From assembly GCA_913040915.1 (NCBI GenBank), contig CAJWHW010000026.1:1-29189 (forward strand): a stretch of DNA of 29,189 nt. The letters run 5' to 3'. Below the pieces are notes generated by a model. It was given only the letters and a program-made list of their open reading frames with translations. It made no database searches and was not told the origin of the DNA. A program made the translations under genes and the position numbers. Every line of letters begins with the position of its first letter. Position 1 is the first letter of the stretch. Shown one piece after another: positions 2,705 to 27,414 of this stretch. Source of the DNA: an uncultured Fidelibacterota bacterium. Lineage in GTDB: Bacteria > Fidelibacterota > Marinisomatia > Marinisomatales > UBA1611.

Positions 2705-2745
2705 CTGGATCTCCTTAATATGATTAGAAATATATGACTCATTTA

Positions 2746-5577: not shown

Positions 5578-5607
5578 CCAGAATTCCCCTTTCTTTATAT
5601 CTAAAAC

Positions 5608-5651
5608 GATAAAGTGGGACATTGCCCTCATGAACAATGCCCCACTTTATC
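5608..5651 (-). terminator. 17-bp stem-loop: intrinsic terminator or mRNA-stabilising hairpin
   Basis: Minus strand reads GATAAAGTGGGGCATTG-N10-CAATGTCCCACTTTATC (one G-U pair), followed by GTTTT. It begins 24 nt after the stop of the 760-aa gene. Confidence 0.65.
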
Positions 5652-5675: not shown

Positions 5676-7958
5676 TTATTTCATTAATACCAGTTTACGA
5701 GTTTGTACGATATCGTTTGCTGTCATAGTATAGAAATAGACCCCACTAGATAATTGTGAACCATCAAAAGTAAAATCATAAGTACCAACTGGTTTGTGCT
5801 CATTAATAAGTGTTTTGACTTTTACACCTCTTACATCAAATAATTCTAATGATACCTGTCCAGCAGAATTTATTTCATACTGTATCTGGGTAACTGGGTT
5901 GAATGGATTTGGAAAATTTTGTTTAAGCGTGAAAGATGAAGGTATGACTTCTTCACCGGTTGCCAGATCTGTATATTCCCAATCATTCTCATAAATACCT
6001 ACAAAGTACCAATTCTTATAATCTTCATAGCCATCATTATCACTTATCGTGTTTACGTTAGGATCCATCATTTGATAAAAAACGCCCACGGATTCATCCA
6101 TACCTTGGTTAGCAAGATGAACACCATATTCTAAAGCAGCTTCTTCCGGATATCCTAAAGCTGTTATAGCCCCCGTAGATGATGTATTGGTCACATTCTC
6201 CGGCTCTGACCAATTGCGTCCATTATCAGTTGACTTTGCCATCCAAACGTCAATATCAGTAGGAATGATTGTACTATCTTCTCCTCCACCATATTCATAT
6301 TCAGACATTCCCGAAATGGAGAACCACATCACGTCTTCAGATTCTGCGCTCATAGTAATATTTGGAAAAAAGTACTGCATGGTTCCAAGAAAATCATCTT
6401 CGCCGCTATGATATTGTGTTTTAATATTTGAATTAAACCAATCTGCTTCATATTCCATAGACATATCATAGATCAAAGATCCAGTCCAATTGTCTTCATC
6501 AGCCATAGGATCAGGGCTATAAATATGCAAGATACCTGTTCCACCTAAACCGTAAAATGAATACAAGGAATCGGCATAGCCATCACCATCTAGATCTTGG
6601 CAGCCAATGCCAGCGTAGTCTCTACATACATATCTCGTTGTTGGAAATACAATGTGTAGACCGCCATTTACATCAGTCCGAATTTCAGCGGTATAGAACG
6701 GATCCCAACCCGAAGCCATTAGCCAGGGAACAAGACTTACTCCGTCTTCATCAAATTCATCATCATAAAAAAGTGTGTCACCATAATGATAATAATATTC
6801 ATTTCCTTCTGCAGCCCATGCTGAATAAAGTGAATCGGTCAACCGGTGGGCGACAGCTTCACCAACTATATGATAACCAGAATTTTTGAATCCGCCTTCA
6901 TCTGTCCAGGTCTCACCAAAGTCTTCTGTCTTTTTTATAAATATTGAGTGAGCATAGTAACTAGCATTGTCAACATCGGTATCATCACCATCATAGTCAT
7001 CTAAATTCGGCCAACCAACCTGCACCATATATCCAACACCATCAGCATTTATATGATAATCAGGACCGCTAACATAATTACCACCGTAAAATAATGTGTC
7101 ACCATCTTCTGTCATTTCCAAATCATCAGAAAGAACATATGCGTTATTCATAAGAAAACTTCCACTAGTAGTCTGGTAAAAACTTGTAATCATATAAGTT
7201 TTATATTCATTTAATGCCCAGGTATTATAAGCGCCCAAGAATTTATAAGAATTCCCTGCTGGAATTATCATTGCGTTACCATACCAAAGATCGGGAGGAT
7301 CGCAAGGAAAAGTATTACATCCGTTATTTGTTGCCATGGGATCAATCCAATAAGCATCTTCGCCCATACCTAATGTATTAAAGGTGTATAAAGGATAACC
7401 ACCATATTGGCCACCACCGAATGTAGGCAATGTATATTCATTCCAAATTGCAGTGGGTTTTGCACCTTCCCAAAAACCTGCACTGGGATACCGCCCTTGC
7501 GGTGGGCCACCACCAGTTGCAGTAGGAAGATTAGGTGCTTCATCACCATTTGGATATTTCAAATTTAATTCCTGAGACTGGAACCATTCTTCCCCATCTT
7601 CGGATTGTGCAGCACCAATAATCCCGTGAGTGGATTGAGATGAGATCCATTGGCGATAAACAGCAAAATATCCTTCATCAACACCATATGCAAGCGGGTT
7701 AGTTGTTTTACCAAAACCGCCATATCCATTCCTACCTGAATCTATGAGCACTGAATTAAATTCACCGTCCCGACTGTTAGCCTTTGGAGCTTTTCCATGA
7801 TTGTAGGAAATACCATGTGTATTAAATGAACTTTGCCCATCAACAAGTTTAATTCGTTCTAAAGCAAGTCTTGAAATATCTTTTTTCTGTGCATAGACTA
7901 GATTGGATAAAGAAAATAATAAAATTACCGTTAGTAATGATTTAGCTTTTTCTAGCAT
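5676..7958 (-). CDS. Secreted Asp-box (BNR/sialidase-like) beta-propeller protein with T9SS type-A CTD, 760 aa
   Basis: Signal peptide MLEKAKSLLTVILLFSLSNLVYA; Asp-box-like QSEDGEEW, KTEDFGETW, KSTDNGRNW; CTD KQNFPNPFNPVT...LSSGVYFY...RKLVLMK; RBS GAGG. Confidence 0.8.
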   Translation of the reverse strand: MLEKAKSLLTVILLFSLSNLVYAQKKDISRLALERIKLVDGQSSFNTHGISYNHGKAPKANSRDGEFNSVLIDSGRNGYGGFGKTTNPLAYGVDEGYFAVYRQWISSQSTHGIIGAAQSEDGEEWFQSQELNLKYPNGDEAPNLPTATGGGPPQGRYPSAGFWEGAKPTAIWNEYTLPTFGGGQYGGYPLYTFNTLGMGEDAYWIDPMATNNGCNTFPCDPPDLWYGNAMIIPAGNSYKFLGAYNTWALNEYKTYMITSFYQTTSGSFLMNNAYVLSDDLEMTEDGDTLFYGGNYVSGPDYHINADGVGYMVQVGWPNLDDYDGDDTDVDNASYYAHSIFIKKTEDFGETWTDEGGFKNSGYHIVGEAVAHRLTDSLYSAWAAEGNEYYYHYGDTLFYDDEFDEDGVSLVPWLMASGWDPFYTAEIRTDVNGGLHIVFPTTRYVCRDYAGIGCQDLDGDGYADSLYSFYGLGGTGILHIYSPDPMADEDNWTGSLIYDMSMEYEADWFNSNIKTQYHSGEDDFLGTMQYFFPNITMSAESEDVMWFSISGMSEYEYGGGEDSTIIPTDIDVWMAKSTDNGRNWSEPENVTNTSSTGAITALGYPEEAALEYGVHLANQGMDESVGVFYQMMDPNVNTISDNDGYEDYKNWYFVGIYENDWEYTDLATGEEVIPSSFTLKQNFPNPFNPVTQIQYEINSAGQVSLELFDVRGVKVKTLINEHKPVGTYDFTFDGSQLSSGVYFYTMTANDIVQTRKLVLMK

Positions 7959-8056: not shown

Positions 8057-9102
8057 TTTAAAATTCGAGTCCAATAGCAAATTGATTGGTCTGTTTCAAC
8101 ACATCATAATTCACATGAGCATAATCTACCCGCAAAGCCATTTTACCCAAACGCAAATTCACTCCCGCACCAATACTCCACTTGGCCGTATCATGGTTTA
8201 AATGAGTGCCAATCCTCACAAATGCTATATTCTCCCAGCCATATTCTAGGCCCATACTACCATAAACGACATAGTCACTGGGCTTGATCCCATCCATGCT
8301 GATGATCAACCGGTGACTCTCATTTTTCATAAATGCACTACTGGGCCCCATTAATTCATTCTCTATACCTAAACGGAATATGAGTGGTAGAGGAAACTTA
8401 TCCGTAATGCGCTCTAAACTCTCATCCACATCAATGGTGTCCGGTACCTGTACAGAGAGCCCTTCTCCAGCATACTCAACTTCAGGGCCAAAATTGGTAA
8501 TACTCATACCCAGGATTGTACCATAGATACCTGTATCAAAATTGGAACCTATATCATAGGATACAGCTTGCATGCCTGTCTCCCATATCTTATCCCGGAT
8601 ATAATTAATAGAAGTGCCAATCTTTAGTCTATCTGTTAATGACCTGGCGTATGTAGCTCGAATGGCCATAGACTCTACTTTAAAATCTTCACCTGTCCCA
8701 TCGGGGAATAGCTCTGTAGTTACTGCCATGGGACCACTATCTAAATAAAACAAGTGAAACCCAATAAAATCAGAAGGACCAATCCTCGTGCCATAGGTTA
8801 ATACACCATGTTTAATCCCTGCTAGGTAATTTACTTGAGAAAAATAGGCTTCCTGCTTCTCAATAAAACCAATACTGGATGGATTATAAGGGATACCAGA
8901 AACACCCCGACCCGAAGCAACGTTGGAGCCACCCATACCAATAGCCCTGGCTGAAGTCTCAAGCTTTAAAAAACTGCCTGCAGCTGTAGCAACCTTTGTA
9001 ACAACATCAGGTATATCCCGATATTGAGCAAATACAAAATAGGGCAATAATAACAGTGCTAGGTATCTGCTCTTCATCGAATTACCGCAAATTTGCCAAT
9101 AT
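8057..9102. repeat. 1046-bp direct repeat, copy 1
   Basis: Line-by-line comparison with 14048-15093 (offset 5991) found no mismatch. First mismatches are at 8056/14047 and 9103/15094. Confidence 0.95.
8058..9077 (-). CDS. PorV/PorQ (UPF0164, FadL-like) family outer-membrane beta-barrel protein, copy 1, 339 aa
   Basis: Signal peptide; family-like N-terminal motif AGSFLKLETSARAIGMGG...YNPS; amphipathic beta-strands; terminal Phe (GLEF); ATGA overlap with the upstream gene. Confidence 0.85.
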   Translation of the reverse strand: MKSRYLALLLLPYFVFAQYRDIPDVVTKVATAAGSFLKLETSARAIGMGGSNVASGRGVSGIPYNPSSIGFIEKQEAYFSQVNYLAGIKHGVLTYGTRIGPSDFIGFHLFYLDSGPMAVTTELFPDGTGEDFKVESMAIRATYARSLTDRLKIGTSINYIRDKIWETGMQAVSYDIGSNFDTGIYGTILGMSITNFGPEVEYAGEGLSVQVPDTIDVDESLERITDKFPLPLIFRLGIENELMGPSSAFMKNESHRLIISMDGIKPSDYVVYGSMGLEYGWENIAFVRIGTHLNHDTAKWSIGAGVNLRLGKMALRVDYAHVNYDVLKQTNQFAIGLEF

Positions 9103-12100
9103 GGTCTTTGGTTTTACCATCATTAAATTGAATAATATAAAAATACAAGCCCGGAGCAATTTCAGGGCCATCCTGGTTATTGCCTGTTCGCAAATTCCAC
9201 CAAGCATTACCATCAAATTCTTTCTCATGATCAAATGTAGTCACATGCTCACCAGTAAGTGTATATATAGAAATTTGGCATTTTTTTGGAAGATGCGTAA
9301 ACCTAATTTTCCTTTCATGCTGTGTTTCGTTAAACCTTGAGCTAGCCTTATAAGGATTTGGGACCACTCTAATAGTATCTAATTTCAGGGTATCAGCTAT
9401 ACCAACTTCTTTACCCAAGGCAGTCATATCTGAATACCATGAATCTCCATCAACAAAAAATTTCTTGGGACTTAGAATTAATTTTTCTCCTCCACGCCAG
9501 GGATAAGATATGCGCCATGGACTGTTAAGAATCCCATCATCTTTCATATCATTGTATTTTGAAATAGGCTCAACACCAGCATCTACAGGTGCTGTTGCTT
9601 CCCATAACATTTGCTTATAGGATACAATATCTTCGGGGTTATAGGATTTTGTATCATCATATTCTCTAAAATTTGTCCCAGTATCCGCACCGAAAAGATC
9701 AGAAATAAAATTATAATTTAAATCAAAATTGTAAATGTATTGACTTTCCCAGATACCAGCAATTTGAAAAGTGTCTTCTCTCATAAGTATATCTTCACCT
9801 CGAGTCCAAACATAATCTCCAGCACCATTAATTACATCACCTGGAGCATCTAACGATCCAAAATCTAAACAATCTAGTCCTACTTTTTTATTGGTAAGCA
9901 AATTGGTTATTCGAAAGGGTGTGTACATGTAAATATCAAGCCCGTTTTCTCCTTCACCAAAATAAATTGAATCCCCAGTAGGTGAATCAAAAAATTCAAT
10001 CATATAATTGCAGTTTGTACGTCTCTTATAACCATCAAGATTAGTATAGGATAATATAGGGAACACCGTACTCAATAGACTAATAACTGTCGCACTGTCC
10101 ATTGTTAAAGTATCAGAATCCCAAGACCAAATCAAAGTATCCATTACTACATCTGGCGCTGAAGATGGATTTAGTTCAAGCGCATTTTCTATATTAAACC
10201 TGATGCCTTTAAACTGATTACTCCACTGGCCGACTTTATTTATAATAGAGTATTCAGGTACCAAATACTCCCCATTTTCTAGAATCGTTCCCGGCAAGCC
10301 AGAGATTGAATCTTCTTCAAGAAATCCCAAACTTTCTTGTAAATAAGGTTTTGTATTTAATGGCGTACCCAATGAATCATTAACCACATACCCATAAAGA
10401 TAAGGGTCTTCACAAGCCATACCATCTACGGCACTTGGACTCTGTTGTGCCTGGATCTCATACATGAGTTGATCTTGAACAATTTTTGTTCGGTCAACAA
10501 TGAAATATTTTCGAACTCCATTACCTATGTTATTTGATGCTGTTTTAAATAATGCTTCAATATTGGATGCATCCGGAAATGAGATATCCAGAGCAGTATA
10601 TCCAGGGATAACAGTAATAAAATTATGATCGCTACTGTCACCACGTGCAGATTCCAAACTGTAGTAGCCACGAGTTGGGTTTGCAGAAGTTCTTATTGCT
10701 TTTCCTGATTCATTAAAATATATAAGAGAATCAGGACCTAAAAATTTATCAGGATTTGTTTTTGTCCAAACTGTGTCAACTTTCACTATTTCATTACTTG
10801 AAATAATACTGTAATACACACAACCACCGGCATTATAAATTGAATCAACAACATAAGAATATGTAATTCTATCAATAGTATCAATCAGAACAGTATCTGT
10901 TGCAATTCCTAAATTTTCCATTTCTAAATCAAAAGGGTTAAATCCAATATCATATGCCGTGACAGTATAGGAATATTCAACACCATCAATAACATTTGAA
11001 TCTACAAATGAATATTCTATACCTGAATTATTCCCTAACGAGAATCTTGGTGATAAAGGATCTAAACCAGAGATGGGAATTTCTCGAGTTAAACCGGATT
11101 CACAATTTTCATCTTCATAAATGCAATGATCTTGATCAGCTTCAGAACTTAAATCAAATTGGGCATAAGGTTTCCAGCCAACAAAATGGCCATTATAATC
11201 ATAAAGCCGATCATCATCATTACCCCATGTTATCCCACCATCGATAGATCTGTATAATTTATACCCTTCAAAATCTGCATAGCCTGTAAGTGAATCAACG
11301 GATGATTCTGAATCCGCGTCCCAGGAAACGAGAACACGGTTATGATCTGCTACAGCATAAATAGCCGGACTCTCCGGAGTTGAAAAATTAGCAAAAATCA
11401 CTTCAACCGAATCTTCAGAGATAGCGTTTTCATCATCCATTACTTTCAATTTGTATATATATCGGGATTGTCGTTTTGTTGGCTCCAAATCTTGAACGGT
11501 AAGAATTGAATCAGAGGTAATGTTACCGGATGGGCTAGTCCATTCAAAGTTTAAATCAGAACTGTCAGGATCGAATGATCCAGTCGCTGCATTGATTATC
11601 ACCGGTTTAGAACTGAATTTAGGTATTCTAACTGTTTCACCAGCATCAGCAACTGGGCATATATTTTCATTTATTGTTACAAATAATGTATCATAACTAT
11701 CACAATATCCATCATTCACTTTAAGCACAACTCTGAATGTAGAATCAGATTCCAAATCTATAGGACTGGTTACTGTTGTGAACGGATTTGAACTATTTTC
11801 TAAATCTAAACCATCAAGAGATTCCCAACTGTAGATCAATTCATTTTTATTAATGTCATAAGAGCGAGATCCATTTAAATCAAATTTATAGTCGCATATG
11901 GGCATCTCAACTGTTGCACTGGCTACAGCAACCGGTGAATCATTTATGATATAATTTACGTAAATAGAATCCTTATCATAATTAACACCATCGTATACTG
12001 AAAGAACGAATGTGAACACGGTGTCCATATCAATCTCTGGGATTGTAAAGAGAGCTTTATATGAATCTGCATCTGATATTGAACTATTGTAACCATCTAG

Positions 12101-14035
12101 GGACGTCCATGAATAAACGAGCAATGAATCTTCAGGATCAAATGAATCTCCACTGACTAGGTCAATAGTAGTGTTACAACCGCTGGGGATTTCCATATCA
12201 ACACCTGCATCAGCAGTAGGGCACATATCAGCTAATAATGTTACATTAATGGTATCAAAATCTTCACAATATTCTTCATCATCATAAACTCTTAATTGGA
12301 ATTGAATAACTGTATCTTCTGTTAACCCTTCAGGATACTCAAAGTAGGGTGTCTCTTTTTTAGATTGAGAGTTACTCATATCTACATCTAGCCCAAGTGT
12401 CTGAATCCATTTGTATTTTAAATTGCCATCTAAATCAAAAGAACCGGTACCATCTAGATAAACACGGTAGGTACCATTACTACGCCTCTCATACTCACAG
12501 GATTCAAAATCTTCTCCTGCATTAGCAACAGGTGGCATATCATCTAGAACAGATACAATTATTGAATCCGTATCTGTTAAGCCAGCTAAATCTGTTACGG
12601 TAAGATAAAATGTCAAATTTTCACCGATTACCGATTCACTAATTGAAAACATGGCCGAATCAGAAGAAGTTGGATTGATCAAAAAGGATGATAATTCTTC
12701 AGCAACTGACCAAACAAAAGTTAATGTACCATTTTCTGGATCTTCAGATTCAGAACCATCTAAATTAAAGGTAGTTTCACAACCACCACTTATAGAAAAA
12801 TTTTCTCCTGCTTCAGCTATGGGGTTTAAATTATCAAAAATAGTTATTGTAACCGTATCCAAATGAGTGCAATAACCGTCATCCACTTTTAGCTCAAATC
12901 TAAAAGTCCCACCAGTATGGCTTTCATTAAAATTTGCAGTAGCAATGGACTTGTTTGAACTTGACACAGATGGTCCATCAAGTGAATACCAGTCATATTC
13001 TAAAAATGCTATATTATCATCAGTGGAACTAGTACCATCTAGGGTTACTGCGATTAAATTAGTGGAAATATCTTCACCTGCATTCGCAATAGGTGCCAAG
13101 TCATTTATATACTCAATTTCTAGTGTATCAATATCCTGGTTATCTCCATCACTGACCGTTAGCTGGAATCTTAAATCTTTATCTGCAGTGAAGCTAGGAA
13201 AAGTAAAGACAGGGTTGGCTAAAGAAGCATCATCCAAATTAGAATTATAGCCATCTAAAGAAATCCAGTTATAAGTTAAAGACCCTCCATCCGGTTCTAC
13301 AGATCCGGAACCATCTAAATTAATACTTGTATTACATCCACTGCTTAATTCTAAATCACTACCAGCATCAGCTACTGGGCACATATCAGCAAGACAGACA
13401 ACACTAACAGTATCCTTATCGGAACAATAACCATTGGCATCAGTAACCATTAATTCTATTCTATATACAGTATTTTCAGTTAAATCAATTGGATGGTTAA
13501 AATATGGTCTCGATTTTGTGGATTGTCCATCGGAAATTGTTATACCTTCATCCAGAACAGTCCACAAAAATTGAATATCGGTACTGTCTTCAAGGTCAAA
13601 AGATTCTGAGCCATTTAGATAAACTCTATAATCATCTCCGCTTATCGAATAATCACAAGCAGTAAAATTAATTCCCGCATCTGCTTGTGGTACATGATCA
13701 CCCAAAACAGTTACTTTGACTGTGTCAGTACTCGATGCACCGCTGTCATCGGTGACTGTTAAAGAAAAATGATAATCATAATCAATTTCAGTTTGGGGGA
13801 TTTCAAAAATTAATGTATCTGCGTCAAAATCAGTCAAGACCGCGCAACCATCGATAGCAAGCCAAAGATAACTAAGATTGTTACCTGTGGATGCTCTACC
13901 ATCTAGAGTAACCATTTCTGTACAACCCGAGCTGACAGTAATATCATTTCCGGCATTCGCAACTGGATTTTGAGAATACAGGAAAGTAGAAAATATTATA
14001 AGTGGGATTAAACTGAAATGGAATTTATGAATCAT
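9074..14035 (-). CDS. Large secreted surface protein (~1653 aa): 9 PKD/K319-like Ig repeats, Fn3-like core, inserted region with CBM5/12-like motif, atypical CTD (VVPNPY...GKFAVIR)
   Basis: ORF 9074-14071. The likely start is ATG 14035 (MIHKFHFSLIPLIIFSTFLYS signal peptide); the longer start overlaps the barrel gene. Repeats follow PxAxAGxD...LDGxxSxD...W...FxLxVxD...D. Core and CTD are homologous to the 1058-aa protein. Confidence 0.88.
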   Translation of the reverse strand: MIHKFHFSLIPLIIFSTFLYSQNPVANAGNDITVSSGCTEMVTLDGRASTGNNLSYLWLAIDGCAVLTDFDADTLIFEIPQTEIDYDYHFSLTVTDDSGASSTDTVKVTVLGDHVPQADAGINFTACDYSISGDDYRVYLNGSESFDLEDSTDIQFLWTVLDEGITISDGQSTKSRPYFNHPIDLTENTVYRIELMVTDANGYCSDKDTVSVVCLADMCPVADAGSDLELSSGCNTSINLDGSGSVEPDGGSLTYNWISLDGYNSNLDDASLANPVFTFPSFTADKDLRFQLTVSDGDNQDIDTLEIEYINDLAPIANAGEDISTNLIAVTLDGTSSTDDNIAFLEYDWYSLDGPSVSSSNKSIATANFNESHTGGTFRFELKVDDGYCTHLDTVTITIFDNLNPIAEAGENFSISGGCETTFNLDGSESEDPENGTLTFVWSVAEELSSFLINPTSSDSAMFSISESVIGENLTFYLTVTDLAGLTDTDSIIVSVLDDMPPVANAGEDFESCEYERRSNGTYRVYLDGTGSFDLDGNLKYKWIQTLGLDVDMSNSQSKKETPYFEYPEGLTEDTVIQFQLRVYDDEEYCEDFDTINVTLLADMCPTADAGVDMEIPSGCNTTIDLVSGDSFDPEDSLLVYSWTSLDGYNSSISDADSYKALFTIPEIDMDTVFTFVLSVYDGVNYDKDSIYVNYIINDSPVAVASATVEMPICDYKFDLNGSRSYDINKNELIYSWESLDGLDLENSSNPFTTVTSPIDLESDSTFRVVLKVNDGYCDSYDTLFVTINENICPVADAGETVRIPKFSSKPVIINAATGSFDPDSSDLNFEWTSPSGNITSDSILTVQDLEPTKRQSRYIYKLKVMDDENAISEDSVEVIFANFSTPESPAIYAVADHNRVLVSWDADSESSVDSLTGYADFEGYKLYRSIDGGITWGNDDDRLYDYNGHFVGWKPYAQFDLSSEADQDHCIYEDENCESGLTREIPISGLDPLSPRFSLGNNSGIEYSFVDSNVIDGVEYSYTVTAYDIGFNPFDLEMENLGIATDTVLIDTIDRITYSYVVDSIYNAGGCVYYSIISSNEIVKVDTVWTKTNPDKFLGPDSLIYFNESGKAIRTSANPTRGYYSLESARGDSSDHNFITVIPGYTALDISFPDASNIEALFKTASNNIGNGVRKYFIVDRTKIVQDQLMYEIQAQQSPSAVDGMACEDPYLYGYVVNDSLGTPLNTKPYLQESLGFLEEDSISGLPGTILENGEYLVPEYSIINKVGQWSNQFKGIRFNIENALELNPSSAPDVVMDTLIWSWDSDTLTMDSATVISLLSTVFPILSYTNLDGYKRRTNCNYMIEFFDSPTGDSIYFGEGENGLDIYMYTPFRITNLLTNKKVGLDCLDFGSLDAPGDVINGAGDYVWTRGEDILMREDTFQIAGIWESQYIYNFDLNYNFISDLFGADTGTNFREYDDTKSYNPEDIVSYKQMLWEATAPVDAGVEPISKYNDMKDDGILNSPWRISYPWRGGEKLILSPKKFFVDGDSWYSDMTALGKEVGIADTLKLDTIRVVPNPYKASSRFNETQHERKIRFTHLPKKCQISIYTLTGEHVTTFDHEKEFDGNAWWNLRTGNNQDGPEIAPGLYFYIIQFNDGKTKDHIGKFAVIR

Positions 14036-14047
14036 ATAAGCAGCTGT

Positions 14048-15093
14048 TTTAAAATTCGAGTCCAATAGCAAATTGATTGGTCTGTTTCAACACATCATAA
14101 TTCACATGAGCATAATCTACCCGCAAAGCCATTTTACCCAAACGCAAATTCACTCCCGCACCAATACTCCACTTGGCCGTATCATGGTTTAAATGAGTGC
14201 CAATCCTCACAAATGCTATATTCTCCCAGCCATATTCTAGGCCCATACTACCATAAACGACATAGTCACTGGGCTTGATCCCATCCATGCTGATGATCAA
14301 CCGGTGACTCTCATTTTTCATAAATGCACTACTGGGCCCCATTAATTCATTCTCTATACCTAAACGGAATATGAGTGGTAGAGGAAACTTATCCGTAATG
14401 CGCTCTAAACTCTCATCCACATCAATGGTGTCCGGTACCTGTACAGAGAGCCCTTCTCCAGCATACTCAACTTCAGGGCCAAAATTGGTAATACTCATAC
14501 CCAGGATTGTACCATAGATACCTGTATCAAAATTGGAACCTATATCATAGGATACAGCTTGCATGCCTGTCTCCCATATCTTATCCCGGATATAATTAAT
14601 AGAAGTGCCAATCTTTAGTCTATCTGTTAATGACCTGGCGTATGTAGCTCGAATGGCCATAGACTCTACTTTAAAATCTTCACCTGTCCCATCGGGGAAT
14701 AGCTCTGTAGTTACTGCCATGGGACCACTATCTAAATAAAACAAGTGAAACCCAATAAAATCAGAAGGACCAATCCTCGTGCCATAGGTTAATACACCAT
14801 GTTTAATCCCTGCTAGGTAATTTACTTGAGAAAAATAGGCTTCCTGCTTCTCAATAAAACCAATACTGGATGGATTATAAGGGATACCAGAAACACCCCG
14901 ACCCGAAGCAACGTTGGAGCCACCCATACCAATAGCCCTGGCTGAAGTCTCAAGCTTTAAAAAACTGCCTGCAGCTGTAGCAACCTTTGTAACAACATCA
15001 GGTATATCCCGATATTGAGCAAATACAAAATAGGGCAATAATAACAGTGCTAGGTATCTGCTCTTCATCGAATTACCGCAAATTTGCCAATAT
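14048..15093. repeat. 1046-bp direct repeat, copy 2
   Basis: Matches 8057-9102 with no mismatch on visual comparison. Contains the whole barrel gene plus the IGKFAVIR-stop codons of the upstream gene. Confidence 0.95.
14049..15068 (-). CDS. PorV/PorQ (UPF0164, FadL-like) family outer-membrane beta-barrel protein, copy 2, 339 aa
   Basis: Translation identical to 8058-9077; ATGA overlap with the 1058-aa gene. Confidence 0.85.
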   Translation of the reverse strand: MKSRYLALLLLPYFVFAQYRDIPDVVTKVATAAGSFLKLETSARAIGMGGSNVASGRGVSGIPYNPSSIGFIEKQEAYFSQVNYLAGIKHGVLTYGTRIGPSDFIGFHLFYLDSGPMAVTTELFPDGTGEDFKVESMAIRATYARSLTDRLKIGTSINYIRDKIWETGMQAVSYDIGSNFDTGIYGTILGMSITNFGPEVEYAGEGLSVQVPDTIDVDESLERITDKFPLPLIFRLGIENELMGPSSAFMKNESHRLIISMDGIKPSDYVVYGSMGLEYGWENIAFVRIGTHLNHDTAKWSIGAGVNLRLGKMALRVDYAHVNYDVLKQTNQFAIGLEF

Positions 15094-18000
15094 AGGGTTC
15101 ATTAGAGCTGTCTTTTTGTTCAACATAAAAGAGATAAAGACCCGGTGCAACTTCCTGGTTATTTATAGTTCTCATATCCCACCAAGCATTACCAGATTGC
15201 TTGTTGCTGTGCTCAACAGTGCTTACATGCTCACCAGATAGAGTGAAAATTTTGATGGTACATCTCTCAGGAAGATTAGTGAAGCGAATTTGCCTCAAGT
15301 GTTCAGTTTCCTTAAACCCAGATTGTACTCTATAAGGGTTAGGTACAACACCAATTTTATCCGTATTTGCAGCAGGCGTTACGCCTGGGTATAATTGTAT
15401 AAAATTTCTGTCTAAAACGGTTGTACCCTTTGAATTTTCAATGGATGCATAGCCATCAGGATCAGCCCATTTATCTGGGTTGGAATAATTAGTGTCTACC
15501 ACAGCTTCAAAAGATCCATCACCTAATTCATTGTATGTGGTTTTATAAGGTGGCTCAACACCCATGTCATAGGCCACAACAGAATAGGTATACTCTAATC
15601 CATCTATAACGTCATTATCGATAAACATATATTTCATCGTATCACCTTCAATAATTTTAGGCTCATCCAATCTGATTGCGTCCAATCCAGTATCATCGCC
15701 TAAACTAAACCATGGGAAATAAGGATCCCCACCTTTTATCCCATGGCCCCTTTGTTGCATTGGGTCATCTGCGCAGTCACTGGGATTGCTGGAATAAATA
15801 CAATGTAATGAATCTTCTTCAGCGCTCAGGTCAAACTGCTGAAATGGCCGCCAACCTGCAAAAATACCATCAGTGTCATAAATCATATCATCCGCTTCAC
15901 CCCAGGAACTCCCACCATCCATACTTTTAAAAATTTTATACCCTTCAAAATCAGCATACCCTGTTACCACATCACGAGAAGATTCTGCACGATCATCCCA
16001 GTAGATTCGAACTTCACCCTGACTAGTTTCTGAATATACAGTCGGTCTTGTTGGTGGCGTAAATCCTTGGTAACGAGAATTATACATCACCTGTGCAAAT
16101 CGCGCGTTGTTTACGAGATCATCTTCAGTTTGTCCAAAGATAATGCAGAAAGAAAATGGCACTTCTCTACCAACAGGCAAATCAAATGGTGCACAGCTCA
16201 TAATCAGCACACAGTCTAAACCTGGATCATCCCTGAGATAAACCGGCTCAGACTTTAACCCAATAACGGAATCAAAATGTGGATTCAGCTCTACTCCTAG
16301 ATCTGTTCCAGGATTTGGTGTGTGAAAGTGCCACGCATTTTCATTATCACTTATGTTTGAAGTGTCACCCACCATTAGCTTATACAAAATTTCTTCTTTA
16401 TTTCGAGCCACAGGACACCCTTCGTAACCAGCATAACAGGGGGGTGATGAATCTTCTGGACGAATCACACCGGGGCGCTGGAACCAATCCACCCAATGCC
16501 AATCAGTCATTTTCAATGGCTCACCAGGAAAGATATCAATTGTGCCATCTTGATCCAAATCAACCGGAGTAGTGGCTTTTGGTGAATCGAGTAACTGAGT
16601 AGCTACTATCCCAAATTCATTACCGGGATTTTGTTGTGATGAAGGCTCATCTAGCGCATATCCCAATTCACCAGATATCCCATCATGGTCCCCGATCATA
16701 GCCATACTGATGAGCATCCTTTCATTGTTTACTTCAAAAACTTCCCAATGATATTTCATAAAATCATCATCATTGGTATGTAAAAAAGAACTGTATCCAT
16801 CCCAATCACCCATGAGAACATCAGCATCCATATAAAACCCCAGCGCCATTCCAGAATAATCAAATCCTTTTCCACGATTGAGCTTTGTACCATCTGGCAT
16901 TATCATTCCTTCACCGCAAATTTGCTTACCATCTTTATCAAGAACAGGATTTCCATCTTCATCTTCAGCACAGAAATCACCACTCTCATTCCGAACCCTC
17001 ACTGTAACAAACATAATATCTTCAGCATAGGAGACTCCATAGGAATGCGCAGAAGCCATAACTCTAAGACCCATAGGATATCCTGTTTGTTCGTATTCAT
17101 TGTTTGTATTAACATTATTTGCTCGATGAGCCCAGCGGTCATCAAACTCCATGTATACATCCATATCAGAGATAAATCTCCCTGGGACTTCTTCCCAACA
17201 ATCAGGATCTTTTCTTGATTGAGAACAGCCTGGTAAATTGATATTAAAATCCTGAGCCCACCAACCTGGCCAAAAAGCTTCTGTCTTACCTGTTAGCTCA
17301 CTATATTTCTTCGGCCATGTTTGCGAGTGACCTGAATGCGCTAAAACCGGATATGTATCTCCAGGAGGCACAAATGGTGAATCCTTGAAAACATCACCGG
17401 TTGTAGTTTCAGTTTGGTGGGTATTAATCCGGGACATAGTAGACGCGTGCCAGTCTGTTTTATAATCAACATTTATAAAATGTGATTCAGCAGCATTTGC
17501 ACCATAATAAACATACCCATCATCATCTGTCCATTCTTCTAAATCATCACCATAATCATAAAAATCAAAACTATTTTCACGACTAATTAGTTTAGGACGA
17601 AGAGCCCAGGGATGAATAAAACCAATTCGTGTAGATGTTTTATTTGGATCTTTCTCTCCAAATGTAGTTAAAACAATTTTTTTATTTTCATGATCAAACA
17701 TGAATTGCTTATCATTATTAAAGGCTTCCACGGAAATGACTTCATTATCTGGTAAGTACAAACCTTCATCATTTCCTAATTCAAAAAGAACACCTGAAAA
17801 TATTGTATCACCAGTGGCGGGAAACCAAGCTTCATAGGCACTGTTGGATTCCCAAATACTATATTTGGGTATGCCATCATCATCAACAATTGTTTCTACA
17901 TTTTCCCAAGTATAATTCGCCGTATTAGAATGACCGGGCAAACCAGCAATAAAAGATACTGCTGGTAAATAAGAATAATCACCCCAAATCCCCGAAGGTT

Positions 18001-18241
18001 GGTGATCCCAATTAATAAAACTACCATAATTAGTAACGGCAGCTTTAACTCGTCCTTGCACTACAAATCCCTTTCCACGATCACTCATAGGATTGGTAGG
18101 GAATGGATTATCACCTATTTTTGCAGCTCCAGCTGGGCGAAACGGATCAGGTGCAGATTTGTTGCTGTTCTGTATGTAGCTCTTATCAATTGCAAGTAAA
18201 CAACCGATTAATAGGATACAGAATGATAATTTTATTTTCAT
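15065..18241 (-). CDS. Secreted TonB-receptor-associated protein of unknown function, 1058 aa, with Fn3-like core and atypical CTD (VVPNPY...GKFAVIR)
   Basis: Starts 5 bp after the receptor stop; signal peptide MKIKLSFCILLIGCLLA; DFEGYKIFKS...YTYSVVAYD Fn3-like segment; CTD IGVVPNPY...IRFTNLP...WWDMRT...APGLY...GKFAVIR. Confidence 0.85.
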   Translation of the reverse strand: MKIKLSFCILLIGCLLAIDKSYIQNSNKSAPDPFRPAGAAKIGDNPFPTNPMSDRGKGFVVQGRVKAAVTNYGSFINWDHQPSGIWGDYSYLPAVSFIAGLPGHSNTANYTWENVETIVDDDGIPKYSIWESNSAYEAWFPATGDTIFSGVLFELGNDEGLYLPDNEVISVEAFNNDKQFMFDHENKKIVLTTFGEKDPNKTSTRIGFIHPWALRPKLISRENSFDFYDYGDDLEEWTDDDGYVYYGANAAESHFINVDYKTDWHASTMSRINTHQTETTTGDVFKDSPFVPPGDTYPVLAHSGHSQTWPKKYSELTGKTEAFWPGWWAQDFNINLPGCSQSRKDPDCWEEVPGRFISDMDVYMEFDDRWAHRANNVNTNNEYEQTGYPMGLRVMASAHSYGVSYAEDIMFVTVRVRNESGDFCAEDEDGNPVLDKDGKQICGEGMIMPDGTKLNRGKGFDYSGMALGFYMDADVLMGDWDGYSSFLHTNDDDFMKYHWEVFEVNNERMLISMAMIGDHDGISGELGYALDEPSSQQNPGNEFGIVATQLLDSPKATTPVDLDQDGTIDIFPGEPLKMTDWHWVDWFQRPGVIRPEDSSPPCYAGYEGCPVARNKEEILYKLMVGDTSNISDNENAWHFHTPNPGTDLGVELNPHFDSVIGLKSEPVYLRDDPGLDCVLIMSCAPFDLPVGREVPFSFCIIFGQTEDDLVNNARFAQVMYNSRYQGFTPPTRPTVYSETSQGEVRIYWDDRAESSRDVVTGYADFEGYKIFKSMDGGSSWGEADDMIYDTDGIFAGWRPFQQFDLSAEEDSLHCIYSSNPSDCADDPMQQRGHGIKGGDPYFPWFSLGDDTGLDAIRLDEPKIIEGDTMKYMFIDNDVIDGLEYTYSVVAYDMGVEPPYKTTYNELGDGSFEAVVDTNYSNPDKWADPDGYASIENSKGTTVLDRNFIQLYPGVTPAANTDKIGVVPNPYRVQSGFKETEHLRQIRFTNLPERCTIKIFTLSGEHVSTVEHSNKQSGNAWWDMRTINNQEVAPGLYLFYVEQKDSSNEPYIGKFAVIR

Positions 18242-18246
18242 ATGCT

Positions 18247-21200
18247 TTAATCAAAATCAATTCTTACAAAAAAGTTAATTTCTCTAGGCGTTGATAGACG
18301 CCACGGCCTGTCATAATATGCACTGGATTTATTGGCAAATTTCCCCTGGCCACTTGGATCTGTACCCGGAAGTCCAACATAGTCTGTATAATATGTTCCA
18401 GGGTCATCTGGCTTACCTGTCATTGCGTAGACATCAACTGCATTTCGTATATCAAAAATATTGAAAATATTCAGCCCGATTGAGAACTTATGACCAACAG
18501 CCTGGAAATACTTTGAAAATGAAAGATTTACATTCTTGTAACCAGGCCCACGTTTTGAATTTCGGTTTCTTTCATCAGAAACAGGGTCACGGCCACGAAA
18601 GATGATTGGTGTATACGGATAGCCACTTTGATAAAATGCTGTTATGCCCGCCTGGATACCATAAGGCAAGAACGTATAGGCATAGTAAGTTAAATCATGA
18701 GGACGATCAAAATATGTGATTGTTTCCTGACTCGGTGCATCTACATATTGGCCGCTAATACTTGCCCAGGCATATTCACTATTTGCCTTAGCAATGGAAT
18801 AAGTATACTGTAGTTGCGAACCAAAAAATCGCCTGCGCCATTCCAAGGTGACATCAAATCCCTTGGCAGAACCATAGTCTCCATTTGTGGAAATCTGATA
18901 ACTGTAAACACCGGATCGTTCATGGGTATAGCGGGTCATTTGATCCATATCTCTGACCCATGCACCTAGAGAATATGCCCAACTTTCCCCAACCTGTACA
19001 TTGAAGGCAACCGAATAATCCTGTGTGCGCTCTGCTCCCATGGAAGCATTCCCAACTTGTCCTTCACCTTCTTCAAATAATTCTTCCGGGTTTTCAAGTC
19101 GGTTTGTGTTTAAATAAATATTTTGATACACTGGTGTCTGATAATAAAGGCCGTAGTTAAAAGTGAAGGTAGATTTATCGGTAATCACATGACTAAAACC
19201 GAGTCTTGGACTAATCTTATAAAACCATCCTGATTGTTCTAGAAAGACCTTTTGTCTCGGCAACCCTGCGATATTGGAATAATCTTCATCATTGTCCCAC
19301 TGGTTATTAGCATTCAGATCAGAATAAAAATAGGGCTGACCCGGACTGTATAGACCTAATGAATCCTGCAAAGGTGGCGGCACGCCCCAAATCTGTGTGT
19401 TATAGTTAACCATATCTATACGGATTCCATAATTGATTACCATCCAGGGTACTTCAAAAGTATTCTGCACATATGCTGAGAATTCCTCTGGCTCACGAAA
19501 CTCATCCCAACTACCATTATTGTTGGCATCCGTAAATGCTTCACCCTTATCCCAGCGACCATTTCCTTCACCTTCATCTGCTTCAGTATAACCATCATCG
19601 CCAAGAACTAAACCATCAGGGCCAGTATCTTCCCAATATTCTGCAAAAGTTTGAATAAATGCAGCAGCTCCAAGCCATGGATCCATTACTTCATAGAAAT
19701 TCAGCTTATGATATTTATAATCAATACCAGATCTAATTTTCCATTTATCAGTGATTTGGGAAGTTAAATCAAAACGAATTTCATCTGTAACCGAACGAGA
19801 ATCAGCATAAAAAGTATCGTGACCTCCAAATGCTCTGCCTTCATCCCAAGCAACACCACCCTGAGAAAGATTTGGCATATAATAATAAGGATTCGTTCCA
19901 CCAAAAAAGTTGCCCGAATTATACGGCACATTCCAAAATGAAGAACCCGGTACATTTTGATATCTTAATTCGATTGAGCTGTAATCATAAAACGGCTCGT
20001 AATCTTCATACATTTCAGGCTCGAGCCAATAATCACCATCTCGTTTAATCAGCGGTTTAACTAAACTTGGGCCATCCCAAATTCCATCATTGTCCGTATC
20101 ATCGAAAGATTCGCCAACGTCCCATACGCCATTTCCATTTTGGTCTTTAAAATCTTCAGCTAATTCCCAACTGTATAATCCTGGGTCTGCACCGTGATAC
20201 CATCCAGTACGCTCATCCACATTCGTATAGCGGATTGTATCACCATCCTCACCAATGCTATAGGGAATAACATTCTCATTTTCGGGATCTGAAATGTCTT
20301 TATATCCGGCAGGATGACGCCATTCAAACCAGTTTGGATACCCGTCTTTATCATTATCTCGCCAACGGACACCCTGGAATTGATCCTGAATGAACCTTGA
20401 AGTACGGATTGTATAAAATGTTCTTTGTGTGACAGAATGATTGACCTCAAAATTCCATCGATATGTATCTCGGAAAAGCTCATTACGTCCTTCGTCCCAA
20501 TAAAGATATCGCGGGTTAAATGATTGCCGATGATTACCAACCTGCCAGTAAGCAGCATGGAATCTTAGTTTATTAGTGAATTTATATGTTAATTTTGAAA
20601 ATACGTCCCATGTTTCAGTAAATCCAAATCCACGGAAACCGGCAACACTATCCCATGGGTATACAAGAGCTCTTTGGTTCTTTTCAATATTACCTGCATT
20701 TGCAATAAGGTCATCTTCAGTTCTGTAATAATAATCGCCATTATAGAGATTGAATATTTTATCATCAAATTCATAAACGCTGTAATTATCTTCCGTAGTA
20801 TATTGCCCTGAAATCCAGAATGATAATTTGGGTATACCTAATACGGGGCCACCAATTCCAATATTTAAATCATCGTATCCTCTAATGAGATCAAAGTTCT
20901 CCGTTTCACTTGTCTTTCCCAAAGCCGAATTAATTAAAGCTCCTACCTGACTGGTCTCAAATTTAATCTTATACTCAATCTCCTTTGCTCCTGAATTTGT
21001 ATGGTAATTTGATACTGCAGATTGGGCATCACCATATTCTGCATTAAAACCACCGGGCTGCCAATCAAACTCTTTCACAGCAAATAGATTTAGCCGAGTG
21101 CCCGATCCAATTGAACCAAAAATTGGATTTCGCAGATACATTCCATCCATCATATAAGCAATTTGTCCGGAGCGACCTCCCTTTACATGTATTTCTTCAA

Positions 21201-21711
21201 TGCCACGTTCTTCATGGTTTGGGACTGATTTAGTTCGGCTTTCAACTTTTACTACACCAGATTGCAAAGTATATAACTCTGTAAGGTCACGGATTGGAAG
21301 TGATTCGATCGCTTCCTTATCCACGGTAACTTTTTTTGATGTGTTTCCACGCTCAACTAAAGGACGGCTACCAAGGACTTCTACTTCCTGACCTTTAATT
21401 ACTTCTTCTTCTAATTTGAAATTTAGCCAAACAGTTTGATCCATCATGACATGAATTTCTAACTTAGTGGTTTTAGCATAACCAATCATTGTACAAACTA
21501 CATCATAGGTGCCAACTGGAATATTCAGGATAAGATAGTTCCCATCCATGTCAGTCGCCGCTCCAATATTAAGGTCTGGAATTATTACGTTAGCACCTGG
21601 GAGAGGCACGCCATCAACATCTGTAATTTTTCCACGTATTGTCCCATCGGTTCCGGCTATTAGGATAGATGCATAAAAAATTAATATGGTAATATATCTC
21701 AATGGAATCAT
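18247..21711 (-). CDS. TonB-dependent receptor with N-terminal carboxypeptidase-regulatory-like domain, 1154 aa
   Basis: GTIRGKITD...PLPGANV...GAATDMDGNYLILNIPVGTY; plug motifs IHVKGGRSGQIAYMMDG and GGFNAEYGDAQS; barrel motifs ISPRLGFSH, GDYGSAKGFD, NIFNIFDIRN, PREINFFVRIDFD. Confidence 0.92.
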   Translation of the reverse strand: MIPLRYITILIFYASILIAGTDGTIRGKITDVDGVPLPGANVIIPDLNIGAATDMDGNYLILNIPVGTYDVVCTMIGYAKTTKLEIHVMMDQTVWLNFKLEEEVIKGQEVEVLGSRPLVERGNTSKKVTVDKEAIESLPIRDLTELYTLQSGVVKVESRTKSVPNHEERGIEEIHVKGGRSGQIAYMMDGMYLRNPIFGSIGSGTRLNLFAVKEFDWQPGGFNAEYGDAQSAVSNYHTNSGAKEIEYKIKFETSQVGALINSALGKTSETENFDLIRGYDDLNIGIGGPVLGIPKLSFWISGQYTTEDNYSVYEFDDKIFNLYNGDYYYRTEDDLIANAGNIEKNQRALVYPWDSVAGFRGFGFTETWDVFSKLTYKFTNKLRFHAAYWQVGNHRQSFNPRYLYWDEGRNELFRDTYRWNFEVNHSVTQRTFYTIRTSRFIQDQFQGVRWRDNDKDGYPNWFEWRHPAGYKDISDPENENVIPYSIGEDGDTIRYTNVDERTGWYHGADPGLYSWELAEDFKDQNGNGVWDVGESFDDTDNDGIWDGPSLVKPLIKRDGDYWLEPEMYEDYEPFYDYSSIELRYQNVPGSSFWNVPYNSGNFFGGTNPYYYMPNLSQGGVAWDEGRAFGGHDTFYADSRSVTDEIRFDLTSQITDKWKIRSGIDYKYHKLNFYEVMDPWLGAAAFIQTFAEYWEDTGPDGLVLGDDGYTEADEGEGNGRWDKGEAFTDANNNGSWDEFREPEEFSAYVQNTFEVPWMVINYGIRIDMVNYNTQIWGVPPPLQDSLGLYSPGQPYFYSDLNANNQWDNDEDYSNIAGLPRQKVFLEQSGWFYKISPRLGFSHVITDKSTFTFNYGLYYQTPVYQNIYLNTNRLENPEELFEEGEGQVGNASMGAERTQDYSVAFNVQVGESWAYSLGAWVRDMDQMTRYTHERSGVYSYQISTNGDYGSAKGFDVTLEWRRRFFGSQLQYTYSIAKANSEYAWASISGQYVDAPSQETITYFDRPHDLTYYAYTFLPYGIQAGITAFYQSGYPYTPIIFRGRDPVSDERNRNSKRGPGYKNVNLSFSKYFQAVGHKFSIGLNIFNIFDIRNAVDVYAMTGKPDDPGTYYTDYVGLPGTDPSGQGKFANKSSAYYDRPWRLSTPREINFFVRIDFD

Positions 21712-24283: not shown

Positions 24284-25432
24284 CTAGGCTGACTTTCGTT
24301 TAAGGCCACCCTTCAATAATGGTTCTTTACCATACAGGATAGTTTCTTTAGTAATTATCACCCGCTCCACGCCTTCCATTTCCGGCAGATCATACATAAT
24401 ATCTAGTAGATGCTCTTCCATTACCGACCGTAACGCTCTAGCTCCAGATTTATGTTTAATTGCAAGACTTACAATAGCCCTGAGAGCAGACTGCCTAAAT
24501 TCCAGCTCAATACCCTCCAGCATGAAAAGCTTTTCATACTGTTTCACTAAAGAATTTTTGGGCTCAAGTAATACCTTCATCAAATCATCTTCATTTAGAG
24601 TGTCAAGTGTACTTACTACCGGTAAGCGGCCCACCAGTTCAGGAATCATGCCATAAGCAATCAAATCTTCCTGGCGTACTTCTTTAAAAATAGTATTGGA
24701 ATCTTTTTTTGTTAATTTCTTTTTTGTACCAAATCCTAACTCGCCCTTTCCAATTCTTCTTGAGATAATTTCTTCTAACCCTGAAAACGAACCGCCGCAT
24801 ATAAATAAAATATTAGATGTATCAACAGAGATCAAACTTTGCTCAGGGTGTTTCCGACCTCCTTTTGGTGGTACATTGGCAATTGTACCTTCTAAGATTT
24901 TCAGTAGTGCTTGCTGAACACCTTCCCCGCTCACATCTCTGGTAATTGATGCACTTGCACCTTTTCGACCAATTTTATCTATTTCATCAATGTAAACTAT
25001 ACCTTTTTCAGCTGCAGCTATGTTATAGTTAGATACCTGAAGCAATCGCACCAAAATATTTTCTACATCTTCACCCACATACCCTGCTTCTGTAAGTGTT
25101 GTAGCATCTGCAATTGCAAATGGGACAGATAAAAACCGGGCCAAGGTTTGAGCAATTAAAGTTTTACCGGTGCCAGTTGATCCGACAAGGAGAATATTGC
25201 TTTTATCTAGTTCTACATCAGAATTATATACTTGATGAATAATCCTTTTGTAATGGTTATAAACTGCAACTGCTATAGCTTTTTTGGCATTATTTTGTCC
25301 AATAATGTGTGCATCAAGATTTGATTTTATTTTTGTAGGTTTTTGAAGTGAAACCTTAAAGCCATTTTTCTGTTTATCATCCTCGGCCTCGAGATTAATA
25401 AAGGGCTTTTTTCCTTTTTTTATTTTACTCAT
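24284..25432 (-). CDS. clpX: ATP-dependent Clp protease ATP-binding subunit ClpX lacking the N-terminal zinc-binding domain, 382 aa
   Basis: VAVYNHYKR, Walker A GSTGTGKT, pore-1 [10 protein letters not shown], Walker [21 protein letters not shown] loop, LGF loop, GARALR; synteny after clpP. Confidence 0.96.
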
Positions 25433-26037
25433 TTACGTACAGTTAAAATTGTATCAATAATACCATAGGCCTTTGCCTCTTTAGATGACATGAAATTATT
25501 CCGATCTGTATCTGCTTCTATTTTTTTGAGAGTCTGCTTTGTATTCTTTGCTAGAATTGTATTTAGCTGTCTTTTCATTCGAAGAATTTCATCTGCCTGG
25601 ATTTTAATATCAGTTGCCTGTCCTTCAGCACCTCCAAGTGGCTGATGAATCATAATCCGTGAATTTGGTAAAGCAGACCTTTTTCCCTTTGCACCGCCAG
25701 CTAATAAAAATGCCCCCATACTTGCTGCCTGTCCTAAGCAGATAGTTGCCACATCTGGTTTGATATATTGCATGGTATCATATATACCCATACCTGAAGT
25801 GATAATACCACCAGGTGAGTTGATGTAGAGATTAATATCTTTTTCCGAATCTTCCGCTTCAAGGAATAAAAGCTGAGCAATCACCAGTGATGCTATTGTA
25901 TCATCAATTGGTGTACCTAAAAAAACAATTCTTTCTTTTAATAACCTGGAGTATATATCAAAGGCTCTTTCCGATCGTCCCGTTTGTTCTACAACAATTG
26001 GGACCAGTTGACTTAATATTTTTTCATCAATGTTCAT
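25429..26037 (-). CDS. clpP: ATP-dependent Clp protease proteolytic subunit ClpP
   Basis: [40 protein letters not shown] (Ser), MIHQPLGG (His), DTDRNNFMS. Start is ATG 26037, or GTG 26049 as in the ORF track. Confidence 0.96.
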
Positions 26038-27316: not shown

Positions 27317-27414
27317 GTTTTCTCCTGAAAAAATAGCGGGCGAATTTATGTGCAATTATTAATGGAGTTAAGAATTAAGATTATTTGCTACCAACTTAGG
27401 ATGAAGATGTTGAA

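Follow-up and report, generated by a model that had tools for sequence, protein, structure and literature searches.

Layout of the repeat locus

The window examined here, a stretch of 29,189 nucleotides, is the complete contig C26 of the 71-contig assembly GCA_913040915.1 from an uncultured Fidelibacterota bacterium. It contains two identical direct repeats, each carrying an entire outer-membrane barrel gene directly behind a gene for a secreted protein; these two diverged upstream genes are referred to as cargo 1 and cargo 2. Positions 8057-9102 matched 14048-15093 exactly over 1046 bp, at an offset of 5991 bp and with no N. A reading made beforehand from the letters alone (the sequence-only reading) had described identical 1046-bp repeats bracketing a 5991-bp unit, with diverged paralogues upstream, and this could be reproduced exactly, including the repeat ends. 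BLASTN across the genome detected no third copy, and the barrel repeat was the sole 100% match of at least 150 bp in the genome self-comparison. Each repeat consisted of the entire barrel gene of 339 amino acids (aa), 1 nt past its stop codon and 29 nt of the upstream cargo gene; the latter comprised the stop codon, eight codons (IGKFAVIR) and 2 nt. The ATGA overlap which joins each cargo gene to the following barrel gene lies inside the repeat. The features of the two units are as follows.

14048..15093, no strand assigned: repeat copy A (upstream in transcription), with the barrel, the last 8 codons and stop of cargo 1, and 1 nt (exact match)
8057..9102, no strand assigned: repeat copy B, with the barrel and the last 8 codons and stop of cargo 2 (exact match)
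14049..15068, minus strand: PorV/PorQ-family outer-membrane barrel copy A, 339 aa, predicted holder of cargo 1 (NF033709; PDB 6h3i_F)
8058..9077, minus strand: PorV/PorQ-family barrel copy B, 339 aa, predicted holder of cargo 2 (family scan; complex model)
15065..18241, minus strand: cargo 1, 1058 aa (structure model and fold search)
9074..14071, minus strand: cargo 2, 1665 aa from TTG, probably 1653 aa from ATG 14035 (PF22352; structure model and fold search)

Cargo 2 more probably starts at the ATG at 14035, ahead of a signal-peptide-like stretch, than at the TTG inside the repeat.

Barrel and cargo proteins

The barrel scored above the cut-off of the PorV/PorQ family model NF033709 (162.5 vs 90 bits) and below the equivalog cut-offs of PorV (NF033710, 62.7 vs 250) and PorQ (NF033711, 82.4 vs 220). 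PorV 6h3i_F was its only significant sequence match in the PDB (E 8e-14), and the Pfam scan returned PF19572 PorV only. SprA, PorU and RecA were found over cut-off in the genome, together with three PorV-family genes elsewhere in it, and a true PorZ could not be found at E 1e-8 in this 85%-complete genome.

Cargo 1 and cargo 2 were diverged paralogues, sharing 34% identity across 289 aa, and 52% within the final 109 aa. Cargo 1, modelled with a mean predicted local distance difference test (pLDDT) value of 67, consisted of an N-terminal beta-supersandwich, an FN3-like domain and a PorZ/PorU-like C-terminal domain (CTD). Cargo 2 comprised a PKD-like stalk (about nine repeats by eye), the FN3-like domain common to both cargos, a cargo-2-specific middle domain and a PorZ/PorU-like CTD. 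The supersandwich resembled the N-terminal domain of GH15, GH94 and GH116 enzymes (1ulv_A; Z 13.2, root mean square deviation (rmsd) 3.4, 215 aligned); their catalytic (alpha/alpha)6 barrel was not matched in the cargo 1 model, whose domains were not folded alone. Both CTDs resembled that of PorZ (cargo 1 against 5m11_A: Z 11.7, rmsd 2.3, 89 aligned; cargo 2 against 5m11: Z 10.6, rmsd 2.7, 92 aligned), and the middle domain had a middling match only, to the FlgL beta domain (Z 8.8). Neither cargo had a whole-protein match in Foldseek, and the ESM Atlas look-alikes of cargo 1 were all without names. Among 60 cargo CTDs scanned at E ≤0.1, 57 matched TIGR04183, 53 the tail of the PorZ model NF052228 and two the type B model TIGR04131 (best E 0.012). 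A type B/SprF reading of the pair was rejected on the PorV-only Pfam result and on the CTDs being type A rather than type B.

When the barrel and the cargo 2 CTD were modelled as a complex, a value of 0.92 was obtained, against 0.00 for the best of three controls, with at least 84% contact agreement between runs and a partner pLDDT of at least 78. Solved pairs reached the mark in 116 of 157 cases and mismatched pairs in 2 of 215, figures that hold only approximately with the alignments used here. A PorV-CTD complex like the modelled one has already been solved (PMC10994853); the model indicates likeness to that complex rather than binding, and its pass may simply echo the known structure. Binding of the CTD by the barrel is thus a prediction.

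The two cargos were complementary in domain content. The N-terminal domain was present in 29/29 cargo 1 and 0/29 cargo 2 proteins, the middle domain in 0/29 and 29/29, and both in 8/8 one-piece forms. These one-piece cargos of 1439-1535 aa, with the N-terminal and middle domains and one barrel, occurred at L116, L117, L118, L120, L123, L125, L126 and L133 (genomes G366, G362, G389, G371, G367, G378, G410 and G383, in the same order); they did not form one clade in the FastTree analysis, and they could represent the ancestral state or repeated re-fusion.

The terminal strand motif was conserved in all cargos, including unlinked paralogues, where silent differences occurred. An orphan cargo 1 paralogue (65% aa identity; G000 C31:17915-21081) had the same last 8 residues with 4 silent differences in 27 nt, compared with 0 between cargo 1 and cargo 2. 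It has no barrel behind it and may use the same barrels; one to three such orphans were seen in most family members. Cargo 1 seemed split in G015 and G027 and receptor-fused in G008 (L020, L027, L019, L036). These forms are probably assembly effects, as 100-N gaps were present in G027 and G008, and several frameshifts in G224.

Conservation of the barrel pair across genomes

The survey of the order gave a barrel match at E 1e-40 in 126 of 233 genomes, with 78 weaker matches outside the list. Every same-contig pair among the matches listed was used, which yielded 35 complete pairs after G203 was dropped as partial. Within these, 23 pairs had 0 differences over 957 nt, six had 1-25, G055 had 215 and five f11 genomes had 442-464. 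The six were G125 (4), G020 (5), G224 (7), G185 (25), and G014 and G183 (1 real difference each plus ambiguity codes); the last two were therefore rejected as resolved non-identical pairs. G053 was likewise rejected as single-barrelled, since its second copy lay on another contig, 100% identical over 1023 nt. Altogether 29/35 pairs, from 7 families of the order, were at least 97.4% identical within the genome, compared with 62-89% between these 29 (hereafter, the converted pairs) and the nearest other paired genome. In G125, a single-contig genome, the copies were 99.6% identical and the differences mostly synonymous; G185 (ten contigs) had 21 synonymous and 4 non-synonymous codon differences. 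Intergenic spacers were also identical within genomes, for example in G147 and G319. The barrel protein falls to 50-60% identity between families, with 51-62% aa identity for barrels outside the family of the query, and converted pairs occur in at least two orders of a single class.

In the nucleotide tree, constructed like the cargo trees with FastTree only, 30/35 pairs formed within-genome cherries. This was the check that had been proposed for ongoing gene conversion, and the outcome strongly supports ongoing homogenisation. The five f11 pairs grouped by position in the barrel protein tree, a quick tree, both sides having a support of 100 and copy B the longer branches. The cargo trees parted 47 + 47 rows by position with 1 change and support of 99. 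Cargo 2 formed one old clade in the same slot throughout the order. Wherever the locus was complete, cargo 1 preceded copy A and cargo 2 lay between the copies, and the position of a barrel directly downstream of its cargo was conserved. The gene between the repeats was always a cargo 2 orthologue, in which only the length of the N-terminal stalk differed (713-1793 aa in pairs), and cargo 2 pairwise identities followed those of cargo 1 (Pearson 0.92, 37 genomes). Since the cargos group by position while the barrels are near-identical within most of the paired genomes, the duplication is old and the identity has been maintained rather than recently acquired. The proposal of a recent module gain thus fails on the age and constant position of cargo 2.

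Beyond the order, 20 loci were taken from a 401-genome sample of the phylum. G238 and G319 had pairs with 0 differences in the gene, G413 had a diverged pair, and G395 showed the order cargo 1-cargo 2-barrel. Eight loci had one long cargo with one barrel (plus the partial G260 and G372), and in three genomes of another class one barrel accompanied a single cargo of roughly 1100 aa.

Homogenisation has been escaped in G055 (77.5% identity), the five f11 genomes (53-55%) and G413 (loci L045, L050, L051, L053, L054, L055 and L129). Copy B evolves faster in these lineages, and the terminal strands of the cargos have diverged as well in G192 and G193.

Tract ends and silent-site G+C content

The ends of the identical tract were determined in 25 converted pairs for which both cargo ends were available. 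At the 3' side the tract ended 0-9 nt past the barrel stop in 25/25. At the 5' side it reached 24-30 nt into the cargo in 16/25 and 93-111 nt in 7, with 39 and 14 nt in one each; the short class stops at a variable-length, indel-rich CTD loop just before the last strand. The modelled interface takes in the converted terminal strand (CTD residues 103-107 and 109-110) but extends past the tract to other segments, and therefore does not set the limits of the tract. The ends fit homology-limited recombination rather than a site-specific system. Site-specific recombination was rejected because the ends vary, follow the edges of homology and include longer spacers, and no recombinase was recognised in the window. 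The absence of a recombinase, also remarked in the sequence-only reading, was confirmed by annotation of the window's open reading frames (ORFs) of at least 80 aa, three of them judged by eye; two tyrosine recombinases were present on other contigs of the genome.

G+C content at fourfold-degenerate sites, expressed as barrel minus cargo, was positive in 20/22 converted pairs (mean +0.061) and in 10/22 non-converting controls (group means 0.001-0.008). Seven of the 29 converted pairs were dropped from this test, six without a long enough cargo 1 in the locus and one frameshifted. The values in this genome were 0.40 for the barrel against 0.285 and 0.231 for the cargos. The raised silent-site G+C is consistent with GC-biased gene conversion, a process described for bacteria (PMC4450053), and collapse of copies during assembly cannot produce it. 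As a separate observation, an 826-bp direct repeat with 96.1% identity and about 1 kb spacing was found at G000 C12:26154-27993, possibly another conversion case.

Metagenome loci and sequence coverage

Coverage was compared inside and outside the cassette, as had been suggested, using Logan contigs. In X2, the repeat assembled as one 1046-nt contig at depth 21, with 11 strain substitutions relative to the window, and its neighbours had depths of 8.2, 9.2 and 10.1. The repeat was again at roughly twofold flank depth in X1 and X5, and the cassette was near flank depth in X1, X2 and X5; X4 was too shallow to inform.

Two full barrels were found in 8/74 metagenome loci, of which four had 0 differences over 900 nt and the others 2, 20, 34 and 103. 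Differences could be patchy, being confined to codons 187-336 in L202, 17-43 in L138 and the last 4 in G020, as is expected of partial conversion tracts. The barrels of L139 (4586-13574), which differ at 103/900 nt, are each nearest to a different relative; the locus is either an assembly chimera or a real inter-species recombinant. L134 repeated the barrel end-cargo 2-barrel segment at 99.7% identity.

A search for junctions expected of deletion or circle formation had also been suggested. Among the 74 loci, nine were deletion-like and four had the order cargo 2-barrel-cargo 2, and deletion-like arrangements occurred in genomes G004 and G005:C22. Exact end overlaps of 77-120 nt were found in 5/10 candidate loop contigs checked, and the one-unit contig L184 carried a barrel 99.9% identical to that of the deletion-like L183. 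This match and the end overlap indicate that an assembly graph can yield both deletion-like and loop contigs, and in at least this case the skipped loop exists as a separate contig.

Origin of the barrel identity

The barrel pair has probably undergone long-lasting concerted evolution by homologous recombination. In the proposed course of events, an ancestral module of a secreted cargo and its cognate PorV/PorQ-family barrel would have been duplicated in tandem early in this Marinisomatota class. The cargos would then have diverged while keeping complementary domains, cargo 1 the N-terminal supersandwich and cargo 2 the middle domain, later joined by a variable PKD stalk. By analogy with PorZ-PorQ, each cargo would be exported through SprA and probably held at the surface via its CTD by the barrel encoded directly behind it. 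The directly oriented barrel genes, 3.2-6.4 kb apart, would be repeatedly homogenised by homologous recombination, presumably of the RecA type, with each tract ending where homology ends, at the barrel stop on one side and the indel-rich CTD loop on the other. Non-crossover outcomes (conversion) would persist, and crossovers deleting cargo 2 would mostly be purged, cargo 2 being non-redundant: the operon would lose the middle domain in a crossover through the barrels, so deletions would be selected against and conversions would be nearly neutral.

A genuine accordion, in which reciprocal crossover via the barrel creates deletion, circle and triplication states whose cycles homogenise the barrels and vary cargo 2 display, seems unlikely. 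Perfect direct repeats of 1 kb are standard recombination substrates for which low-frequency deletion is expected, and RecA is present; the nine deletion-like loci, the four with two cargo 2 genes, G004 and G005:C22 are what such a system would leave. These shapes, however, are also what an assembly graph gives for a loop (L183/L184 and the overlaps in 5/10), and G004 and G005 are ambiguity-coded consensus assemblies. The cassette lay near flank depth, the same cargo 2 was kept in 35/35 pairs and evolved in step with cargo 1, and the only recombinases annotated were the two on other contigs. The idea of a cassette system for surface variation, as put forward from the letters alone, found no support. 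It is highly improbable that an assembler collapsed two diverged copies or strain variants into a single consensus and then placed it twice. Short reads do not span the repeat, the contigs of many relatives (G023, G024, G053 and G220) end right at the barrel and L139 is chimera-like, so collapse may inflate the 100% values in single short-read genomes, and a few hidden SNPs between the copies in this genome are possible. Yet collapse presupposes near-identity, diverged pairs (77.5% and 53-55%) assemble as two copies, near-identical copies were resolved in the single-contig G125, and L134 recovers the barrel end-cargo 2-barrel segment. Repeat resolution has no bearing on the G+C shift, nor on the doubled repeat depth (every junction contig being present), and merging cannot explain the overall pattern.

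Independent recent duplication of the barrel, or insertion of the cassette, in each lineage is very unlikely. Local duplication is conceivable for genes in tandem, a caveat raised for tandem fla (PMC6053082), and barrel number does change, as in G395 and in five genomes with the order cargo 1-barrel-cargo 2; the explanation would nevertheless require some 30 independent events, all at one syntenic position and with matching ends, cargo 2 is one clade, and the five position-clustered f11 pairs show the old two-barrel state. Purifying selection on the protein alone has a practically negligible chance of being the cause: it could account for the terminal strand kept in all cargos, unlinked paralogues included, but not for the within-genome identity of synonymous sites and spacers, given that the protein is down to 50-60% between families.

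Several points weigh against concerted evolution as framed above. The five genomes with both cargos and one barrel (G028, G029, G227, G228 and G229) indicate that the second barrel is not essential, and deletion of cargo 2 may be viable, judging from G004 (96% complete), which has cargo 1-barrel-760-aa gene and in which a cargo 2 orthologue was not found. Barrel and cargo distances are loosely rank-linked (Spearman 0.25-0.34, Pearson 0.75-0.78). The G+C count is weakened by kin not being independent, and codon selection is another possible source of the shift. Most 100% pairs come from fragmented assemblies able to collapse near-identical copies. Logan contigs drop rare variants and contig depth is not a copy number, which makes the coverage data supporting only; the X5 cassette was somewhat over its flanks (6.2-8.2 vs 4-5.8), and strain chimerism, apparent in L139, could also lie behind the patchy metagenome pairs. 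These data do not separate conversion from repeated unequal crossing-over, and with one-piece forms not in one clade, both a split and a re-fusion are possible.

Concerted evolution might, more tentatively, be selected rather than a result of proximity only. The cargos would be halves of one ancestral protein acting at a TonB-dependent receptor, and the barrel and CTD docking strand would be co-converted as lock and key, such that either barrel could hold either half; the escaped lineages (five f11, G055 and G413) would then be evolving specialised barrels. This version is doubtful, although somewhat better than a long shot.

Neighbouring genes

On the minus strand, the order of genes was the putative 756-aa lipoprotein, the receptor-like gene, cargo 1, barrel A, cargo 2 and barrel B, followed by proteins of 760, 963 and 901 aa, all three with type A type IX secretion system (T9SS) tails. 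The remaining features of this run are as follows.

21708..23978, minus strand: putative lipoprotein, 756 aa, first gene of the run (lipobox-like N-terminus by eye; no family match; synteny)
18247..21711, minus strand: TonB-dependent-receptor-like gene, 1154 aa, conserved upstream neighbour (Plug and CarboxypepD_reg matches; synteny)
5676..7958, minus strand: 760-aa protein with type A T9SS CTD, downstream of copy B (TIGR04183, 39.5 bits vs cut-off 23)
5608..5651, minus strand: terminator-like hairpin with a 20-bp stem, after the 760-aa gene (terminator scan)

The terminator scan found 12 sites against 10.6 expected, the stem at 5608..5651 being the longest, and the promoter scan was at chance level (71 vs 77.3). 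The modelled supersandwich of cargo 1, together with the upstream receptor, suggests a glycan-capture complex, which may serve glycan uptake. Two more receptor-(cargo)-PorV-family loci, both single-barrelled, were seen at G000 C5:36578-43979 and C25:9430-13193.

A tig-clpP-clpX-like housekeeping run (24284-27355, recognised by eye) lies directly upstream of the operon, and a peptidyl-arginine-deiminase-like protein with a dockerin at 28146-29186. Positions 2-5637 encode two T9SS-tailed proteins, the 901-aa M43 metallopeptidase, which has FG-GAP repeats and is truncated at the end of the contig, and the 963-aa protein, which has a MAM-like domain. The genome as a whole has about 40 type A tails. 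Three RNA runs contain the stretch, at 6-9% of words; all runs listed as holding it were marine, and named relatives at 77-79% barrel identity were labelled Neomarinimicrobiota or Marinimicrobia.

Comparison with known systems and significance

The literature search yielded no description of this locus or of concerted evolution of PorV-like genes, most subscription journals lying outside that search. Outer-membrane paralogues of Helicobacter pylori, homA/homB and babA/babB, are reportedly homogenised by recombination, segmentally, within one species and with a role in allelic variation; conversion of the barrel here is unlike these in being whole-gene, class-wide and without a variable cassette.

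Recurrent deep concerted evolution of protein genes is reportedly rare, with 26 genes in 682 species, and outer-membrane cases are usually short-term (PMC6053082). Three of the signs used in that study, clustering in at least five species, conserved synteny and synonymous-site identity, were found here. A further sign used there is a duration of hundreds of millions of years, on which bear the spread of converted pairs over two or more orders and the 51-62% aa identity of barrels outside the family of the query. The barrel pair resembles those cases in the within-genome clustering of syntenic paralogues across species, the synonymous identity, the existence of a tandem case with diverged context (mtrA) and a product that is part of a complex. 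It differs in that the tract runs into the end of a diverged partner gene and that sister lineages which convert can be set beside others which do not; none of the 26 genes, as far as the study itself names them, codes for a secretion-system component or an outer-membrane barrel.

In Porphyromonas, PorZ retains an uncleaved CTD and is anchored by PorQ (PMC10947112, PMC5562754). The locus is like PorZ-PorQ and PorU-PorV (see also PMC10994853) in having a PorV/PorQ-family barrel, a CTD whose best match is PorZ, and SprA and PorU in the genome. It is unlike them in that the barrel scores under the equivalog cut-offs, neither cargo is PorZ or PorU, the barrel gene sits directly behind that of its cargo and is duplicated, and the host belongs to Marinisomatota. 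The arrangement of one shuttle gene directly behind each cargo gene is shared with pairs of type B CTD and PorP/SprF (PMC12618676); here the CTD is type-A/PorZ-like, the barrel is PorV-family and the two shuttles are identical rather than specialised.

The locus therefore represents a known process in a new gene class, with natural on/off controls. It documents cargo-specific PorV-family anchors in Marinisomatota, and it carries a warning, since false deletions and circles arise from it in metagenome assemblies. With about 30 converting species, and lineages in which conversion stopped long ago, stopped more recently or lacks a partner copy, the family offers a natural experiment for bacterial GC-biased gene conversion, for the escape of duplicates from homogenisation and for the cargo specificity of T9SS barrels.

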